Source: a virus
UHGV virus genome: UHGV-0055357
DNA length: 42,138 bases
Direction: 5' to 3' (one strand)
Part shown: positions 4,423 to 17,549 of the stretch, piece by piece
Layout of the letters: every line of letters begins with the position of its first letter
Position numbering within the stretch: position 1 is the stretch's first letter
Notes under the pieces: generated by a model
What the model was told of the DNA's origin: nothing
The model's database searches: none
What the model saw: the letters and a program-made list of their open reading frames with translations, nothing else
Position numbers and translations under genes: made by a program

Positions 4423-4656
4423 TTATTTGCCAAAAAAACTAAGAACCAGTGAAGCGAACTCCAGTCGCTCTTCCTTGCTGAATTGCTGGTATTTTTCATT
4501 AAAGCGCATTGCGTATTCATACCAGTTCATGATCTCTTCATGAATGATGATCATCACCTCATCATCGTTGGTGCTGGCGGTGATTCGCGCCTGAACTGCT
4601 GGTATAACTACTCGTGCCACTTCCGGTAGGCATTTCAACATTGCATCCATCTTCAT
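4423..4656 (-). CDS. hypothetical protein, first gene of leftward early operon
   Basis: ORF track, 77 aa. Not Arg-rich, so not an obvious lambda N analogue. Confidence 0.5.
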   Translation of the reverse strand: MKMDAMLKCLPEVARVVIPAVQARITASTNDDEVMIIIHEEIMNWYEYAMRFNEKYQQFSKEERLEFASLVLSFFGK

Positions 4657-4701
4657 TTCCTCATCAATCCCTTATCGCCGGGTCGCGGAACTTTTACTGA
4701 G

Positions 4702-4719
4702 TAATCACTGTGCAGTGAT
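4702..4719. promoter_or_regulatory. inverted repeat AATCACTG-TG-CAGTGATT in the leader of the leftward early operon
   Basis: Read directly from sequence. Lies between the candidate leftward promoter and the first early gene, so it could be an operator or an RNA hairpin. Confidence 0.35.
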
Positions 4720-4733
4720 TGTTTTGATGTGGT

Positions 4734-4763
4734 GAATGTAGAATAACCTAAGGTATGAATCAA
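4734..4763 (-). promoter_or_regulatory. candidate PL-like leftward early promoter
   Basis: On the minus strand: TTGATT, 18-bp spacer, TACATT. The spacer contains CCTAAGG, which also occurs in the repressor/cro intergenic region. Confidence 0.3.
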
Positions 4764-4835
4764 GATTTATTTTGTAGAAAAACCTAAATTATATGGCGTG
4801 TGAATTTAACTTAATGAAAGATAAGGAATAAAAAA

Positions 4836-4851
4836 GCCAGCGGGAGCTGGC
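4836..4851 (-). terminator. rho-independent terminator ending the repressor-nuclease transcription unit
   Basis: Minus strand reads GCCAGC-TCCC-GCTGGC followed by TTTTTTATT, 12 nt downstream of the stop of ORF 4863-6017. Confidence 0.6.
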
Positions 4852-4862
4852 TTCTGGATGGA

Positions 4863-6017
4863 TTACGCTTTGTGTTTCTTAAAATTTTCGTCGTTTTGGA
4901 CGAAATGGAGAGAGTCCAGTATCAATCCCGCGATCCGCAGGATGTCCTCGGGTGAGTCCAGGTAAATGCGGTTGCCGTCTGCCTCCAGCCCGGCCCTGGA
5001 TATTTCATTGTAAATTACTGGTGTGAACTCAATAGGGAGTTGAATAGATGAGCGCAACTTTTTGTCATGATATCGAGCTATCCATCTATTTGTTTTTCCT
5101 TTAAATAGTACGGAAAAATAGGACTCTGTATCTTTGCCGTGTAAATCAACGTCTGCTCCCACAATGGCCTGGATTTTTTCGAACACCACCCGCTCGTTAT
5201 AGGTGGTGATAATATTTGGATTGTTGGGGTCGATAATATCAGCAGTCTCATCAATTACGGGTTCGTTGGCTGGATCTGGTTGCTGTACCACTTCCTCAAC
5301 TGCGGGATTGAACGACAGGCCGGATACCACCATTGCGCTGAGTGAGCGCTCTACTGCCTGTTTAACCAGCGGGGTAATTGACTCCAGAAATTTTTGGTTC
5401 AACTGACGTCCGATATTGGCATGGCTGGCAACATAACGAACAAAATCAACGTCAACCTCTTTGAGGCTTGCTGTGATAATTTTGGTGAATGACGATATGT
5501 AAACGCTTTCCTCCGCCAGAGTTCGTAGCGCCTCAGGCTTGAATTTATCGTGACGGAATCTAAAAAGCTGTTCGGCGTCAGCGTCTGAAATATCGTCCAT
5601 CACAACGCGTAAAAACGGCGTTGTGTCCATGATGTTTTTCTCTTTTAAATCAGTAAAAAAGCGCCACTCAACACCGTTAGTTATCGCGGAGATCGTAACT
5701 TCTGGAGTTGAGTTGAAATAGCGGGAGAGCTGCGGGCAATGGTTGTCGATTTTTTCCCGGCAGGATTTTGCTTCGATAAACATGACAGGCACACCCTGGC
5801 AGAATAGCGCGTAATCGACTCGCTCACCACTTTTGACGCCAGGGAAATCGGCGGCATACTCGGCTTTAACTTTCTGCGGATCGTAGGCATTAAAACCTAA
5901 AATATCTAAAAATGGCAGGATTAGCGCCTGTTTCGTGGTTTCTTCAGTTGTGCAGTGTTCCCTAACGTTTTTAACGTGTTCGATGTGATTTTTTAACTTT
6001 TGCTTAAAGCTTTCCAT
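4863..6017 (-). CDS. PD-(D/E)xK nuclease, HsdR-N-terminal-like restriction-endonuclease fold, with uncharacterised C-terminal domain
   Basis: 384 aa. N-terminal motifs ETTKQALILPFLDILGF … RVDYALF … VMFIEAK … QLSRY … ITNGVEWRFF match the D…E-x-K core of the type I HsdR N-terminal nuclease family. Same strand as the repressor and 31 bp downstream of it. Confidence 0.8.
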   Translation of the reverse strand: MESFKQKLKNHIEHVKNVREHCTTEETTKQALILPFLDILGFNAYDPQKVKAEYAADFPGVKSGERVDYALFCQGVPVMFIEAKSCREKIDNHCPQLSRYFNSTPEVTISAITNGVEWRFFTDLKEKNIMDTTPFLRVVMDDISDADAEQLFRFRHDKFKPEALRTLAEESVYISSFTKIITASLKEVDVDFVRYVASHANIGRQLNQKFLESITPLVKQAVERSLSAMVVSGLSFNPAVEEVVQQPDPANEPVIDETADIIDPNNPNIITTYNERVVFEKIQAIVGADVDLHGKDTESYFSVLFKGKTNRWIARYHDKKLRSSIQLPIEFTPVIYNEISRAGLEADGNRIYLDSPEDILRIAGLILDSLHFVQNDENFKKHKA

Positions 6018-6048
6018 GTACTCATCCTTACGATATCCAACAAACTGG

Positions 6049-6459
6049 TTATCTTTTGGACGCGCGCGACCTTGCTTTTAATAACTCACTGAGTCGAATT
6101 CTGTTGTTCTCCACCCTTAGCCGGAGGCTCTCAATTTCAGCCGCGCGGTCAGAGTCCGGTAATTGATCAAACAATTCCAGCAGTTCTTTTTGTTCGGGTG
6201 TTAACTGCTCTAAAAGATCGGGTTTTGGGGCTGGCTCCGTAGGGGTTTGATCCTCGTCACCAAACAGCAACCACGTCGGTGTGCACTGTAATCCGTCGGC
6301 AAGAGCAATAAGCCGCTTCCCCGCTGGCTGTGTCTCGTCTCGTTCCCACTGCGAAATAGTTACGTGAGCAACGCTGACAAGCTTGCCGAGGGCGGCTTGA
6401 GAGAGTTTCAGTTCTTTTCTCCGCTTGAGGAGGCGGGCACCAAAAGTTTCTTTTTTCAT
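6049..6459 (-). CDS. prophage repressor, XRE-family HTH, no S24 peptidase domain
   Basis: 136 aa. N-terminal HTH (LSQAALGKLVSVAHVTISQWE), helical C-terminus. Divergent from the Cro-like gene. No Ala-Gly/Ser-Lys autocleavage module. Confidence 0.85.
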   Translation of the reverse strand: MKKETFGARLLKRRKELKLSQAALGKLVSVAHVTISQWERDETQPAGKRLIALADGLQCTPTWLLFGDEDQTPTEPAPKPDLLEQLTPEQKELLELFDQLPDSDRAAEIESLRLRVENNRIRLSELLKARSRASKR

Positions 6460-6538
6460 TTAAGTTATTCTAATGTCCCTTGACTTAAGATTCCCTACAA
6501 TATAGAGTCCTTAGAAAAACCTAAGGGAGAAGCTCGAC
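6460..6538. promoter_or_regulatory. divergent immunity-region control region with operator-like dyad
   Basis: 79-bp intergenic region between repressor and cro-like gene. Contains TTGACT (6480-6485) and the dyad CCTTAG-AAAAAC-CTAAGG (6509-6526). AAGGGAGAA ribosome-binding site precedes the GTG start at 6539. Confidence 0.5.
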
Positions 6539-6769
6539 GTGTACAAAAATGATGCAATTCGTTTTTTTGGAAATAAAACAAAAGTTGCTGCCGCTGCAGG
6601 TGTAAAACCTGCCTCCGTGTCGGTCTGGGGCGAACTGGTCCCAGAAAAAAATGCGGCGAAATTGCAAATGGTTTCTGGTGGCGTTCTGGTCTATGACCCT
6701 GAGATTTACGCTGAATATAAACGCAACCGCCGCGAGGAACTGAACAATGAAAATCAGTCCTCAAATTGA
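6539..6769 (+). CDS. Cro-like / YdaS-like small DNA-binding regulator
   Basis: 76 aa, GTG start with good ribosome-binding site. Divergent from repressor. AIRFFGNKTKVAAAAGVKPASVSVW resembles Cro/YdaS-type HTH proteins. Confidence 0.7.
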   Translation: MYKNDAIRFFGNKTKVAAAAGVKPASVSVWGELVPEKNAAKLQMVSGGVLVYDPEIYAEYKRNRREELNNENQSSN

Positions 6770-7193
6770 GGCTGTTGCCACTGCTGTTAATCAGTGGGCA
6801 GCGAGCGAGGGCTGGCAAACCGTCGGCCTGGATATAGCAGCACAATATCACTACGAGGGTGGCGGCAGTTTACTACCCGATCCAGACAGTGACCAGGACA
6901 ACGCCAGGCAACGGGTGCGCCGTATTTTTCAGAACTGTGACGGCCCACGCTACAGCGCAATGGCAGCAGAGCTGACAGGCCCGGCATTACGTGCAATGCC
7001 TGTCATGCGAAGTGCTGCTGTGTCGATGCCTGATGCGCCGCAGTATTTATCCGCTCTGGCTCTCAAAGAGATCACGGAGTTTTTAAACGCCGTCAACCTG
7101 GGCGCACCTGATCGCGAGCTGTGCAAAGAGGGGCGAGAGGCGCGCGAGGCGTTCAATCGGTTATTTAACACGGTGATCCCGGCAGGGCACTAA
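6747..7193 (+). CDS. hypothetical regulatory protein in the cII position
   Basis: 148 aa between cro-like gene and O. No sequence similarity to lambda cII recognised; the call is positional. Confidence 0.5.
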   Translation: MKISPQIEAVATAVNQWAASEGWQTVGLDIAAQYHYEGGGSLLPDPDSDQDNARQRVRRIFQNCDGPRYSAMAAELTGPALRAMPVMRSAAVSMPDAPQYLSALALKEITEFLNAVNLGAPDRELCKEGREAREAFNRLFNTVIPAGH

Positions 7194-7212: not shown

Positions 7213-8166
7213 GTGGCAGAAATTGAAGACGGTTATACGCGCATTGCTAATGATCTTTACGAGGCACTGATAGGCGCAGATTTGACAAAAGTTCAAAGCA
7301 AAGTCGCGCACGCAGTATGCCGCAAAACATACGGGTTTAATAAAAAAATGGACCGAATATCGGACGGGCAGTTAGCTGAAATAACCAGATTGCCGCGGCA
7401 AAAAGTTAATGCTGCGAAAAACGAACTTATATCCATGAAGATTATAAATCGTGAATGTGGATTAATTGGTATAAATAAAAATATCGCCGATTGGGATATT
7501 AACGGCTCACATCACAGTATTAATAATGTCACCAAAACAGTGACAAAAACTGTCACCAAAACAGGGACAGAATGTGTCACCGATTTGGTGACAAAAGAGG
7601 TGGAAGAAAGTGTCCCCAATTTGGTGACAGATGAAAGCAATGATGTCACCAAAACAGTGACAAAAACTGTCACCAAAACAGGGACACACAAAAGACAAAA
7701 GAAAGTAAATACTAAAAGATCTTCGTCAGAGAATTCTAACGATTCCTCTGACGAGCAATTACAGAAATTTTTATCAGCCCATCCTGATGCGGTGATTTAT
7801 ACCCCGTCCGGGGCAAAGTGGGGAAACGCTGATGACCTGCGTTGTGCTGAATGGCTTTCCGCCGTGGTTGAAACAATCAGGCCGTCTGCAACAAACCGAA
7901 ATATGACCTCGTGGGCAAACGACGTCCGCATGATGCGTTCGCTGGATAATCGCTCACACCGTGAAATCTGTGAGTTATTCAAATGGGCGTCCAGTGATGC
8001 TTTCTGGTGCTCGAATATTTTATCTCCTGCAAAACTGCGTGAGAAGTGGGACACGCTCGCGATACAGCGTGACGCCGGAGGACGTAAACAGCGGCAGGAA
8101 AATTTAAACCACGGTGACGATTCCGAGCACTGGAATAGCCCTGAGGCCTGGAGTGATTTTATATGA
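7213..8166 (+). CDS. O: replication initiator protein O
   Basis: 317 aa. N-terminal domain aligns by eye with lambda O (DGYxRxxNxL … GADLTKxQxKV … RKTYGxNKxMDRIxDxQLxEITxLP). Central VTKTVTKTVTKTG repeats are the coding image of the iterons. Confidence 0.9.
   Translation: MAEIEDGYTRIANDLYEALIGADLTKVQSKVAHAVCRKTYGFNKKMDRISDGQLAEITRLPRQKVNAAKNELISMKIINRECGLIGINKNIADWDINGSHHSINNVTKTVTKTVTKTGTECVTDLVTKEVEESVPNLVTDESNDVTKTVTKTVTKTGTHKRQKKVNTKRSSSENSNDSSDEQLQKFLSAHPDAVIYTPSGAKWGNADDLRCAEWLSAVVETIRPSATNRNMTSWANDVRMMRSLDNRSHREICELFKWASSDAFWCSNILSPAKLREKWDTLAIQRDAGGRKQRQENLNHGDDSEHWNSPEAWSDFI
7527..7686 (+). repeat. origin of replication: six ~19-bp iterons inside the O gene
   Basis: Copies of TGTCACC-N5-RGKGACA start at 7527, 7551, 7575, 7611, 7644 and 7668, followed by an A-rich tract 7687-7721. 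Same architecture as ori-lambda. Confidence 0.75.
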
Positions 8167-9215: not shown

Positions 9216-9464
9216 ATGAGTAAATCATTAGAAGATTTAAACGCTGTTCTTTTTTCGCAGATTGATAAGCTTTCCACGGAAGAGCCTGGAGATAAACTGT
9301 CAGAGGAGATTAAGCGCTCCAAGGCGATGGTGGGGGTAGCGGATACTATTATCGCAAACTCGCGTTTGGTATTCGATATCTATGAATCGCAAGGAGGCAT
9401 GAAATCTATAGAAAATCGACCGGACATTTTGCGAGTTAAAAAACATACTGGCAATGGGAAATAG
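9216..9464 (+). CDS. hypothetical protein
   Basis: ORF track, 82 aa. First gene of a tightly packed three-gene unit with the HNH and methyltransferase genes. Confidence 0.5.
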   Translation: MSKSLEDLNAVLFSQIDKLSTEEPGDKLSEEIKRSKAMVGVADTIIANSRLVFDIYESQGGMKSIENRPDILRVKKHTGNGK

Positions 9465-10005
9465 ATTTCATAAGTTCACGGAAGAGCAAAAATGCTGGTT
9501 ATTTATTCATAACGAGTTGTCTCGCAGAGAGGCAACTCGATTATTTAACCTGCGATTTCAAACGGAACTCATTGAACAGCAAATAATTAATTTCAGAAAA
9601 CGACACGCTTTGCTTACCGGGAGAACAGGACGGTTTGCTCCAGGGCAAAGCTCGCCATCTCTCTCGGGCGCAAAAGGTCCAAACAGGACGTCATTTAAGC
9701 GTGGACATACTCCAGCCAACAAAGCCCTGGTGGGGGAAGAGAGGGTGAGGGGGGGATACATTTACGTCAAAACGGTTGATGGGCGGTGGAAATTAAAACA
9801 TCGATTGCAGCATGGAGGGCAGGTAGTGAGGTTTTGGGATGGGGACGCAAACAATTTATCACCGGAAAATTTAATTCCAGTTACACGCTCCGAACATCTT
9901 ATTTTAAACAGAACGGGGTATTCACATACACCAGAACCCGTAAGGGATGCCCATATTGCCGTTGCAAAATTGAAAGCAAAGATCATTGAGGTAAAGAAAA
10001 AATGA
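9454..10005 (+). CDS. HNH endonuclease (HNH_3-like)
   Basis: 183 aa. HRLQHGGQVVRFWDGDANNLSPENLIPVTRSEH matches the HNH catalytic pattern (His, Asn-Asn, final Glu-His). 4-nt overlap with the downstream methyltransferase. Confidence 0.7.
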   Translation: MGNRFHKFTEEQKCWLFIHNELSRREATRLFNLRFQTELIEQQIINFRKRHALLTGRTGRFAPGQSSPSLSGAKGPNRTSFKRGHTPANKALVGEERVRGGYIYVKTVDGRWKLKHRLQHGGQVVRFWDGDANNLSPENLIPVTRSEHLILNRTGYSHTPEPVRDAHIAVAKLKAKIIEVKKK

Positions 10006-11534
10006 GCATTGCAAATGAACTCTGGCAGGCCGTTGACATATTGCGCGGAGAGGTAAAATCCTCAGAGTACGGAAAATATATTCTACCACTCGTTATCCTG
10101 CGCAGGATAGAGCAGGTTAGTGACGTGGAGACATTACATTCAATCACCACAGGTGCAGAACTAGCGCGGCATATAGCAACCCTTTCGGGTACAGTGCGGA
10201 ATATTTTATCCTGTTTTGATTTTGACAAAACAATCAATAAAACACATGACACAATAGTACAGCAGTTGGCCTTAGCGTTTTCCTGCATTGATGTTCACCC
10301 GGATCGCGTAAATTCTGGCGATATGGGCATGATATTTGAGGATATGATCCACCGTTTCGCGAGTGATGAAACGGCGGGCGAATTCTACACGCCAACGGAT
10401 ATAGTGAAACTGATTACAGAACTGGTGATTCCACTGGATATCTCCAGTGAGGTGGCAATATACGATCCGACCTGCGGGACGGGGGGGATACTCGGCGCGG
10501 CGGAGGAGGTTATTCGTACTCGCCGCCCTGGAGCTGACGTTACATTATATGGTCAGGAATTGAATCCCGAATCTTTCGCCATTTGCCGTGCAGATATGTT
10601 ATTGCGCGGCAGGGATCCTGAAAATATCAGGCTGGGCAATACATTATCCGAGGACAAACTGGCGGGGCGTACATTCGATTTTATTCTCTCTAATCCACCG
10701 TATGGGGTGGACTGGAAAAAAATCGATAAGCTTGTACGAGCTGAACACTGTCAGGGGTTTGCAGGCCGTTACCCAGCGGGGTTACCCCGTGTGTCGGACG
10801 GTTCTCTCCTGTTTGTGCAGCACGTTATCAGCAAGCTGGCACCGGGCGGTCGCGCAGGAATTGTACTCAACGGCTCGCCATTATTTACTGGTGGAGCGGG
10901 CAGTGGAGAGAGCCAAATTCGCAGACACATACTGGAAAACGACCTGCTGGATTGTATTATCGGACTGCCAAAAGACATGTTCTATAACACAGGGATCACC
11001 ACGTACATCTGGATACTGACAAATGAAAAGAGAGTAGAACGAAAAGGGCTGGTCACGCTAATTGATGCATCTGACCTATTTGAAAAAATGCGCAAATCTC
11101 AGGGCAATAAGCGCAATCAGCTGACTGACGCTCAGATCGCTGAAATCGTCAAGTTGTACCGTGATAATCAACCAGGTGAAAAAGTTAAGATTTTTCCGTA
11201 CACCGCTTTTGGTTTCCGCCGAATCACTGTTAAGCGCCCGGACGAGAACGGGAAACCCGATAAAAATAAACGCGATAATGAAAACGTGCCGCTGGGTGAG
11301 AATATCGACGCGTATTTTGCCAGAGAGGTTACGCCACACGTTCCTGACGCCTGGATTGACAGAAAGAAGCGAGATCCGGTTGACGGGGAGGTTGGGATTG
11401 TTGGCTATGAAATACCCTTTAATCGTCATTTTTATGTTTATGTCCCACCGCGTCCCCTTGAAGAAATTGACGCTGAGCTCGCGAGCGTAAGCCGTGAAAT
11501 TGCTGCAATGCTTGCCGAGATGCAAGCGTATTAG
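10002..11534 (+). CDS. N6-adenine DNA methyltransferase, HsdM-like, no adjacent specificity subunit
   Basis: 510 aa. SAM-binding motif I IYDPTCGTGGIL, catalytic motif IV SNPPYG, C-terminal GYEIPFNRHFYVY motif as in type I M subunits. No HsdS or HsdR helicase gene nearby. Confidence 0.85.
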   Translation: MSIANELWQAVDILRGEVKSSEYGKYILPLVILRRIEQVSDVETLHSITTGAELARHIATLSGTVRNILSCFDFDKTINKTHDTIVQQLALAFSCIDVHPDRVNSGDMGMIFEDMIHRFASDETAGEFYTPTDIVKLITELVIPLDISSEVAIYDPTCGTGGILGAAEEVIRTRRPGADVTLYGQELNPESFAICRADMLLRGRDPENIRLGNTLSEDKLAGRTFDFILSNPPYGVDWKKIDKLVRAEHCQGFAGRYPAGLPRVSDGSLLFVQHVISKLAPGGRAGIVLNGSPLFTGGAGSGESQIRRHILENDLLDCIIGLPKDMFYNTGITTYIWILTNEKRVERKGLVTLIDASDLFEKMRKSQGNKRNQLTDAQIAEIVKLYRDNQPGEKVKIFPYTAFGFRRITVKRPDENGKPDKNKRDNENVPLGENIDAYFAREVTPHVPDAWIDRKKRDPVDGEVGIVGYEIPFNRHFYVYVPPRPLEEIDAELASVSREIAAMLAEMQAY

Positions 11535-17354: not shown

Positions 17355-17549
17355 ATGAAAAAATTATTAATTCTGGTGGCGCTGGTCGCCCTGGCTGGTT
17401 GTACACACACGACGTATACGGAAGCAACACGCGCAGACGGAACGACGGTGAAACATATTGCGATCGCGCCGGGTACGAAAATTACAACGGCAAACGGAAA
17501 CTGTATTGATTCGACGGGCGCGGCGGCTGAGTGTCCGGTAAAGGAATAA
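17355..17549 (+). CDS. small lipoprotein
   Basis: Signal peptide MKKLLILVALVALAGC with lipobox LAGC, ~48-aa mature part. Start taken at the ATG at 17355. Confidence 0.6.
   Translation: MKKLLILVALVALAGCTHTTYTEATRADGTTVKHIAIAPGTKITTANGNCIDSTGAAAECPVKE

Follow-up and report, generated by a model that had tools for sequence, protein, structure and literature searches.

The virus genome UHGV-0055357 was analysed here as one stretch of 42,138 nucleotides, called the window below, in which a gene for a 384-amino-acid protein follows a repressor gene on the minus strand and is closed by a terminator of its own. The protein, referred to here as the solitary nuclease, shares its nuclease domain with the HsdR subunit of type I restriction enzymes. 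In this work, we describe the gene, its phage setting and the family to which it belongs, and consider the role it may play in lysogenic cells. The unit formed by the two genes comprises the following elements:

6049-6459, minus strand: gene of a 136-amino-acid DicA-type helix-turn-helix (HTH) repressor (HTH_3, NF007257), presumed to be co-transcribed with the nuclease gene
6018-6048, minus strand: 31-bp spacer between the two genes, with an AAGGA Shine-Dalgarno sequence about 9 nt before the ATG of the nuclease gene
4863-6017, minus strand: solitary nuclease gene, 384 amino acids (stop codon 4863-4865), an open reading frame (ORF) with an ATG start, an HSDR_N domain and a match to PHROG 4225
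4826-4855, minus strand: intrinsic terminator closing the repressor-nuclease unit, a 10-bp GC-rich stem (4855-4832) followed by a T-run

The nuclease protein is 100% identical to WP_235399347.1 of Escherichia coli STEC384, which RefSeq labels "type I restriction endonuclease". The Pfam model HSDR_N (PF04313) matches it with 54.6 bits against a cut-off of 25.1 (E = 1.7e-14); HSDR_N_2 matches it too, and both models together cover residues 25-128. PHROG 4225, labelled "endonuclease", aligns residues 1-376 with profile positions 1-357 of 357 (E = 7.1e-146). When 85 full-length relatives, most of them about 30% identical, were aligned, nine residues proved to be the same in 85/85 sequences (E25, K29, E53, D68, E82, K84, Q96, Y100 and G115), and this set comprises the D...ExK triad (D68, E82, K84) and the QxxxY motif (Q96xxxY100). 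The latter is a motif of RecB-family nucleases and is needed for DNA cleavage by the HsdR subunit of EcoR124I (PMC2475608). An HSDR_N match or alignment was obtained for all 23 and for all 85 relatives checked, and the motifs RVDYALF and FIEAK were both found in the translation of the nuclease ORF.

A structural model was obtained with AlphaFold2 from the 85-sequence alignment, with a mean predicted local distance difference test score (pLDDT) of 92.8 and a predicted template modelling score (pTM) of 0.60; pLDDT exceeds 90 across the nuclease core, residues 1-140. When the N-terminal part was compared with the PDB by Foldseek, it matched nuclease domains from type IIG enzymes (DrdV, BpuSI) and from HsdR proteins (3h1t, EcoR124I), with probabilities of 0.9-1.0, though at E-values of just about 1e-2. 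Sequence searches of PDB chains, with the protein or with the family profile, returned chance-level matches only. Judged by its sequence, the protein is a catalytically complete nuclease of the RecB/HsdR type under strong purifying selection, which would be expected to cleave DNA. An original prediction had proposed a 384-residue ORF with an HsdR N-terminal nuclease core at 4863-6017; such an ORF, starting with ATG, does lie there on the minus strand, and the above-cut-off HSDR_N score, the complete set of catalytic residues and the nuclease neighbours in Foldseek uphold the assignment of its N-terminal part.

Pfam found neither a helicase domain nor an N6_Mtase domain in the 384 residues. Two related identities were considered and rejected. 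An HsdR subunit would carry a helicase, and the protein scores only 19.3 vs 729 and 12.4 vs 284.55 with the NCBIfam HsdR models; a type IIG enzyme would carry a methyltransferase and a target-recognition domain, both of which are absent here, and the alignment is confined to the nuclease part. No family-specific model was found in the June 2026 release of NCBIfam.

In the AlphaFold2 model, the protein is composed of four parts, namely the nuclease core, a helical region, a disordered linker and a compact alpha/beta domain:

5598-6017, minus strand: PD-(D/E)xK nuclease core, residues 1-140 (E53, D68, E82-x-K84, Q96xxxY100), defined by invariance, AlphaFold2 and Foldseek
5313-5597, minus strand: helical region, residues 141-235, with long helices at 161-186 and 208-235, defined by AlphaFold2 secondary structure and family conservation
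5232-5312, minus strand: disordered acidic linker, residues ~236-262, with pLDDT below 50 at 239-248
4866-5231, minus strand: C-terminal alpha/beta "double-wing" domain, residues 263-384, with conserved T271, T272, E275, D296, Y300 and R315

The helical hairpin may serve as a dimerisation scaffold that pairs two subunits. The linker has a net charge of -7 in this protein and a median of -4 in the family, within which its length varies from 8 to 47 residues. The C-terminal region has no Pfam match in the nuclease protein or in any of 45 family members, in agreement with the earlier description of this half as unrecognised. Its fold is of the "double-wing" type seen in YdhG (DUF1801), YjbR (DUF419) and the C-terminal domain (CTD) of T4 MotA, and MotA proteins are likewise among its top structural matches in BFVD. 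Although the folds are alike, identity to these proteins is just 6-16%; the likeness is one of fold, from which homology and DNA binding can at most be predicted. The MotA CTD and PSPTO_3016, two of the closest folds, are DNA-binding. The checks originally suggested for both halves, by Pfam, structure prediction and Foldseek, thus identified a nuclease in the N-terminal half and a double-wing fold in the C-terminal one.

Some relatives combine the same nuclease and helical part with other C-termini. Pfam recognises DUF4357 in two proteins (E = 1e-19), a RAMA domain in one (E = 8e-4) and a SeqA_C-like domain in one (E = 1.6e-3), and further relatives have C-termini without any Pfam match. The name RAMA stands for "restriction enzyme adenine methylase associated". 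From this domain composition, the C-terminus is, as far as sequence comparison can tell, an exchangeable module. A constant effector joined to exchangeable DNA-associated modules is the usual way in which restriction enzymes vary their specificity. When the C-terminal domain alone was used as a profile, the matches were mainly truncated fragments of the family, and no new architectures came to light. It was suggested originally that the C-terminal half could be a sensor or regulator. The region turns out to hold a helical hairpin, an acidic tether and a double-wing domain, and because relatives swap the latter for DNA-associated domains, a DNA reader looks likelier than a protein sensor, which we keep as an improbable alternative.

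The repressor matches the NCBIfam model for DicA (NF007257) with 180 bits against a cut-off of 101 (E = 1.5e-53). A promoter scan found no promoter-like site within the 31-bp spacer or just upstream of it. Directly past the nuclease stop codon, the terminator hairpin folds with -15.1 kcal/mol (z = -4.5), and 0/200 shuffled sequences fold as well. The gap of exactly 31 bp to a repressor on the same strand had been predicted, as had a terminator at 4836-4851, where the stem at 4855-4832 and its T-run are found. On its other side, the repressor gene faces a Cro-like gene and, likewise, a YdaT-like gene. The regulatory features around the unit are as follows:

6539-6769, plus strand: divergent Cro-like gene (P22_Cro / YdaS, Pfam)
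6480-6508, plus strand: PR-like promoter within the OR-like region, from the promoter scan
6453-6531, no strand assigned: OR-like operator region separating the repressor and cro genes, with the palindrome CCTTAGGTTTTTCTAAGG inside it
4737-4792, no strand assigned: OL-like operator pair, TTAGGTTATTCTA and TTAGGTTTTTCTA, 36 bp apart, from the repeat search

Allowing up to two mismatches, TTAGGTTTTTCTA has four matches in the 42-kb window, two between the repressor and cro genes (6460-6524) and two past the terminator (4739-4787), before the early-left genes. At the OL-like site, a weak PL-like promoter (TTGATT, a 17-nt spacer and TACATT) was read by eye; it falls below the threshold of the scan. 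Because the OR-like and OL-like repeats bracket the repressor and nuclease genes, as in phage λ, the pair sits in a slot like that of rexAB, where the original prediction had placed it. The repressor ATG has no obvious Shine-Dalgarno sequence, and upstream of it (6459-6500, minus strand) there is a TATATT -10-like element with a poor -35; this region recalls the weak, activator-dependent PRM and the leaderless cI mRNA of λ.

The solitary nuclease belongs to a large family. A word-indexed search returned 1,377 matches, and an exhaustive search of 50%-identity representatives gave 3,765 clusters at E<=1e-3 and 396 at E<=1e-30. Nearly all members are 340-420 amino acids long, and those of Enterobacterales and Pasteurellaceae are 62-78% identical to the window nuclease. 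Among sequenced temperate phages, family genes were found in those infecting hosts of eleven genera (Klebsiella, Clostridium, Fusobacterium, Enterococcus, Streptococcus, Lacticaseibacillus, Corynebacterium, Pseudomonas, Porphyromonas, Acetoanaerobium and Terrisporobacter), which represent the phyla Proteobacteria, Firmicutes, Bacteroidota, Actinobacteria and Fusobacteria. The gene usually lies directly downstream of a repressor, and individual loci are arranged as follows:

Klebsiella phage KpF5: Rac-type repressor, then the nuclease gene
E. coli PCN061: RacR, 170 bp, nuclease gene
Citrobacter (4 loci): CI-S24 repressor, 21 bp, nuclease gene
Xenorhabdus: CI-S24 repressor, 10 bp, nuclease gene
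Gut-metagenome relative, 27% identical: S24 repressor, 40 bp, nuclease gene
Yersinia pseudotuberculosis (locus L105, 3214-5158): repressor with HTH and Peptidase_S24 domains, 67-bp gap, nuclease gene
Streptococcus phage IPP25: repressor, one small gene, nuclease gene, integrase
Lacticaseibacillus P7.1: nuclease gene as the third co-oriented ORF past a strand switch, the ORFs all unannotated
E. coli 214-4 (locus L098, 4544-5704): baseplate-operon variant of the nuclease gene, with a small hypothetical gene and the baseplate J gene as its same-strand neighbours

In IPP25, the nuclease gene belongs to the lysogeny module, and the context in P7.1 may represent another such module. To quantify the association with repressors, neighbours were counted in two sub-alignments, the clade of the window nuclease and a distant clade of gut phages, using crude ORF calling and after removal of duplicate loci; the counts refer to distinct sequences and not to independent evolutionary events. 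In the former clade, a same-strand gene lies within 200 bp upstream in 43/46 non-redundant viral loci. These upstream genes encode an HTH_3 domain in 21/46 and a Peptidase_S24 domain in 20/46, and another 13 are of RacR size; one RacR-size protein that was checked is 100% identical to RefSeq RacR. A repressor is therefore located upstream in at least 34 of the 46 loci, and three unrelated repressor families are involved. In the distant clade, 68/78 loci have a same-strand upstream gene, and among 62 non-redundant upstream neighbours, 18 carry an S24 domain and about 10 more an HTH domain. For comparison, we estimate, from a density of about one repressor per 50-70 genes, that only a few per cent of randomly chosen phage genes would have the repressor as their upstream neighbour.

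Other copies occupy different positions. In about 28 E. coli genomes, a variant of the nuclease gene (about 70% DNA identity) is found inside the baseplate operon of a myovirus-like prophage, and the Pasteurella copy closes the tail module at a prophage edge. In Porphyromonas phages, the family gene adjoins hicAB (phage 019b; locus L006, 2738-4565), whereas the Brenneria copy adjoins a PIN/Phd pair with no phage genes near (locus L102, 4001-6080), the Edwardsiella copy abuts an insertion sequence (IS) element, and one relative adjoins ribosomal-protein genes on an archaeal-looking contig. In Y. pseudotuberculosis, the S24 repressor and the nuclease gene persist as an isolated pair in an ordinary chromosomal setting, where their neighbours are OmpA-like, GGDEF, ABC-transporter and Fic genes and no other phage genes lie within 4 kb. 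Downstream neighbours are heterogeneous in 42 gut-phage loci, with a Pycsar-type TIR effector and a dCTP-deaminase-like gene as single cases, and no conserved downstream partner gene was found among them. Nor was a conserved methylase neighbour found across the related loci examined.

Within the window, the stretch 4500-6900 is 100% identical to a lambdoid prophage of E. coli STEC384 and STEC379, which is integrated beside ttcA, in the Rac attachment region. The neighbouring early-left operon encodes Exo VIII and Gam. A megablast search with the same stretch gave no match among 50,697 phage records, and any homologue of the nuclease gene was found in 33/5,426 E. coli genomes. The phages PPompW, Klebsiella ST405-OXA48phi1.2 and PhiR42_1 have DicA-type repressors with 49-67% identity to the one in the window, and in each of them the slot is filled by small, unrelated genes; for this reason, the nuclease gene is regarded as an accessory insertion.

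The original prediction had also stated that the nuclease lacks a helicase, methylase or specificity partner. This holds for the helicase and for HsdS, none of which was found in the window, but not entirely for the methylase:

10002-11534, plus strand: orphan HsdM-type methyltransferase (HsdM_N + N6_Mtase, Pfam) in the nin region

This gene lies 4 kb from the nuclease gene on the opposite strand. It was rejected as a partner of the nuclease, being absent from most related loci. A 183-amino-acid ORF with a weak HNH_3 match (E = 1.6e-4) overlaps the start of the methyltransferase gene by 4 nt (window 9454-11534, plus strand), and the two could form an HNH-methylase pair or, alternatively, provide an anti-restriction methylase.

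Several known systems resemble the solitary nuclease in part. Type I HsdR proteins (EcoR124I, PDB 2w00, and that of Vibrio vulnificus, 3h1t) have the same HSDR_N domain, D...ExK and QxxxY motifs and Foldseek-detected fold. In contrast to the solitary nuclease, they also possess a superfamily 2 (SF2) helicase/translocase and act in a complex with HsdM and HsdS; because the solitary nuclease has no helicase/translocase, ATP-driven translocation to cleavage sites is impossible for it. The type IIG enzymes DrdV (7lo5/7lvv) and BpuSI (3s1s) gave the best structural matches, with about 200 aligned columns that extend into the helical region. In these enzymes, a methyltransferase and a target-recognition domain are fused to the nuclease, while the solitary nuclease has a tethered 120-residue double-wing domain instead. 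In genomic position, the closest parallels are λ cI-rexA-rexB and cI-bstA of the Salmonella phage BTP1, which share the slot downstream of the repressor in the immunity region and a terminator of their own. The bstA gene of BTP1 lies downstream of cI, at the rexAB site that is a mosaic hotspot, and is highly expressed in lysogeny (Owen et al., PMC8585504). Both RexAB and BstA act by abortive infection and lack a PD-(D/E)xK nuclease, and no homology of the nuclease protein to RexA/RexB or BstA was found in Pfam, PADLOC or PHROGs.

Type IV restriction enzymes offer a further parallel. McrA (from e14) and GmrSD (from CT596) are prophage-borne, and each combines a nuclease and a DNA-reading module in a single polypeptide without a cognate methylase. 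The solitary nuclease shares this one-polypeptide prophage layout and the lack of a cognate methylase, although the nuclease families differ and none of the modified-base readers of type IV enzymes (SRA, EVE, YTH etc.) is recognised in it. Some fragments of the family are labelled "predicted type IV restriction endonuclease" by the Joint Genome Institute (JGI). PHROG 4225 is the family itself, given the full-length match, and its "endonuclease" label is an annotation only.

We consider it fairly likely that the protein is a defence or exclusion nuclease of some kind, expressed in the lysogen. The reading we favour, with a probability a little better than even, is that of an accessory ("moron") gene whose product is a restriction-like endonuclease made together with the repressor and guarding the lysogen against other phages. 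Transcription from the repressor maintenance promoter would read through the 31-bp spacer into the nuclease gene and stop at the hairpin at 4855-4832. The N-terminal PD-(D/E)xK domain, of the HsdR or type IIG kind within the RecB family, would cut DNA, the helical hairpin probably joining two subunits. The tethered double-wing domain would read a feature of foreign DNA and in this way distinguish self from non-self without a cognate methylase; most plausibly, this feature would be a base modification or an unusual DNA structure, in the style of type IV or type IIM enzymes. Since the nuclease would be made continuously in a lysogen without a protective methylase, it must either recognise a feature absent from the host or await a trigger. 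Recognition is favoured because two of the closest folds bind DNA and because relatives carry other DNA-associated C-terminal domains. This methylase-independent mechanism with a DNA reader is, as a specific proposal, only tentative. With equal reserve, we suggest that, in many phyla, the family may form a widespread, previously unrecognised group of methylase-independent restriction enzymes that consist of one protein and share the transcript of the prophage repressor, and whose swappable reader, here a MotA-CTD-like double-wing domain, would sense a modification or structure of phage DNA. The recurrence of the gene behind three unrelated repressor families in distant phyla points to selection on its expression context.

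A number of observations weigh against this reading. The C-terminal domain is near-neutral and the nuclease domain acidic (family medians of net charge -1 and -5, respectively), unlike what is expected of a strong DNA binder. The conserved residues T271, T272, E275, D296, Y300 and R315 look pocket-like, and such a pocket would suit a flipped base or a non-DNA ligand. The matches of the alternative domains RAMA and SeqA_C are weak, and the link with repressors is frequent but not universal, given the baseplate operon, the prophage end and the chromosomal and archaeal-like contexts. The favoured mechanism also gives no account of how the prophage would spare its own DNA after induction. In the literature searched, which did not include one relevant screen, no report on the expression, activity or phenotype of a family member was found. 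Among the dedicated models of PADLOC 2.0, for systems and candidate systems alike, none matches the protein, whose best E-value is 0.0055. When the 85 members were run against PADLOC, mostly partial matches to type IIG restriction endonuclease-methyltransferase (REase-MTase) models were obtained through the nuclease domain, for at most 13/85 members with any one model, along with scattered single-digit matches to the MTase_I, mad2, Cas4 and PDC-M54B models. In the DefensePredictor supplements, the proteins with an HsdR_N domain are all larger (825-971 amino acids). Single-gene systems were excluded from the domain-centric study in Nucleic Acids Research (NAR 2026), and in the Porphyromonas CRISPR (clustered regularly interspaced short palindromic repeats) paper, the family is merely one of many spacer targets.

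Among the alternatives, an abortive-infection nuclease deserves the most attention, although we regard it as unlikely. In that case, the enzyme would be inactive in the lysogen until its tethered C-terminal domain sensed an infection cue, whereupon indiscriminate degradation of DNA would kill the cell. RexAB and BstA use the same slot, a flexible acidic tether of variable length suits autoinhibition or sensing, and the presence of toxin-antitoxin and TIR genes among the neighbours fits as well. A C-terminal domain that is not basic, with conserved T, T, E, D, Y and R residues that resemble a pocket and not a surface for the DNA backbone, also agrees better with a sensor. In the structural model, however, nothing points to a docked, autoinhibited state, since each of the two domains is predicted with confidence and the pTM is 0.60, and the alternative C-terminal domains of relatives are associated with DNA or restriction enzymes, as are two of the closest folds with DNA binding. 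A role in the phage life cycle, either as a nuclease for recombination, repair or DNA processing or as a degrader of host or competitor DNA switched on by the SOS response through S24 cleavage, is distinctly improbable. Many of the upstream repressors are LexA-like S24 proteins, and a negatively autoregulated operon of this kind would be induced by DNA damage rather than silenced; moreover, some copies are in late (baseplate) operons, and the early-left operon nearby encodes the recombination functions Exo VIII and Gam. Nevertheless, the gene is dispensable, as related phages lack it and it is rare in E. coli, and it is found behind repressors both with and without an S24 domain. It also persists with only its repressor (Yersinia) or alone (Brenneria, Edwardsiella), where no phage is left to serve.

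The sporadic distribution of the gene and its varied insertion sites, including one between conserved baseplate genes, could also be produced by a selfish, free-standing homing endonuclease, which would cleave the alleles of related phages that lack the gene and so spread among them. Homing enzymes of the free-standing type have a similar two-module architecture, and the protein remains 62-78% identical across genera while its neighbours differ. We consider this explanation very improbable, since three unrelated repressor families and distant phyla argue against a conserved target sequence and the gene persists at chromosomal sites without phage homologues. Besides, the strong conservation of a 384-residue protein, in both catalytic and C-terminal residues over about 400 clusters (E<1e-30), is unusual for a rapidly decaying homing gene. 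Least probable of all is a catalytically silent protein of nuclease fold that acts as a DNA-binding regulator of immunity. PD-(D/E)xK folds are sometimes reused as DNA binders, and the presumed co-transcription with the repressor would suit such a role, but the catalytic residues, QxxxY included, are all invariant in 85 diverse members. Of these readings, the lysogen-expressed, restriction-like defence nuclease is the one we retain.

Spacers matching the gene occur in bacterial CRISPR arrays. In 38 E. coli genomes, the window region is matched solely through a type I-E array beside queE. In strain ATCC 8739, 3/12 spacers of this array have a perfect match in the window, and for two of these the match lies in the nuclease gene (array at locus L002, 1229-1991). 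The protospacers, with the protospacer-adjacent motifs (PAMs) where noted, are as follows:

5067-5098, no strand assigned: 32/32 match to an E. coli type I-E spacer, flanked by an AAG PAM
5423-5455, no strand assigned: 33/33 match to a second spacer of the same array, flanked by AGG
17363-17394: perfect match to a third spacer
4661-4689: 27/29 match to a fourth spacer

The three clustered protospacers are on one strand, and their flanks equal the PAMs AAG, AGG and AAG. This pattern suggests primed acquisition from a phage that carried the nuclease gene. Elsewhere in the window, an O-like replication gene (ORF 7213-8166, plus strand) contains tandem repeats at 7507-7700 that encode VTKTVTKTGT-type peptides; these repeats occur twice, about 100 nt apart, and resemble the origin iterons in lambdoid O genes.

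A defence gene that rides on the repressor transcript is already known, as is the databases' endonuclease label for this protein. In contrast, the combination of an HsdR/IIG nuclease with a helical hairpin and a double-wing domain, the size of the family and its strikingly constant position behind unrelated repressors in different phyla have no entry in the resources queried. If the favoured reading is wrong, the locus is still a clean case of a moron inserted in an immunity region. If it is true, the gene would represent a compact, single-gene immune module of about 1.15 kb, found in temperate phages whose hosts are gut, oral and pathogenic bacteria and not listed in the defence catalogues queried, and thus a further well-populated occupant of the repressor-adjacent defence hotspot. 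It would also provide a function for the YjbR/DUF1801/MotA-CTD-like fold, which mostly lacks one, and might yield a new nuclease tool specific for a DNA feature.

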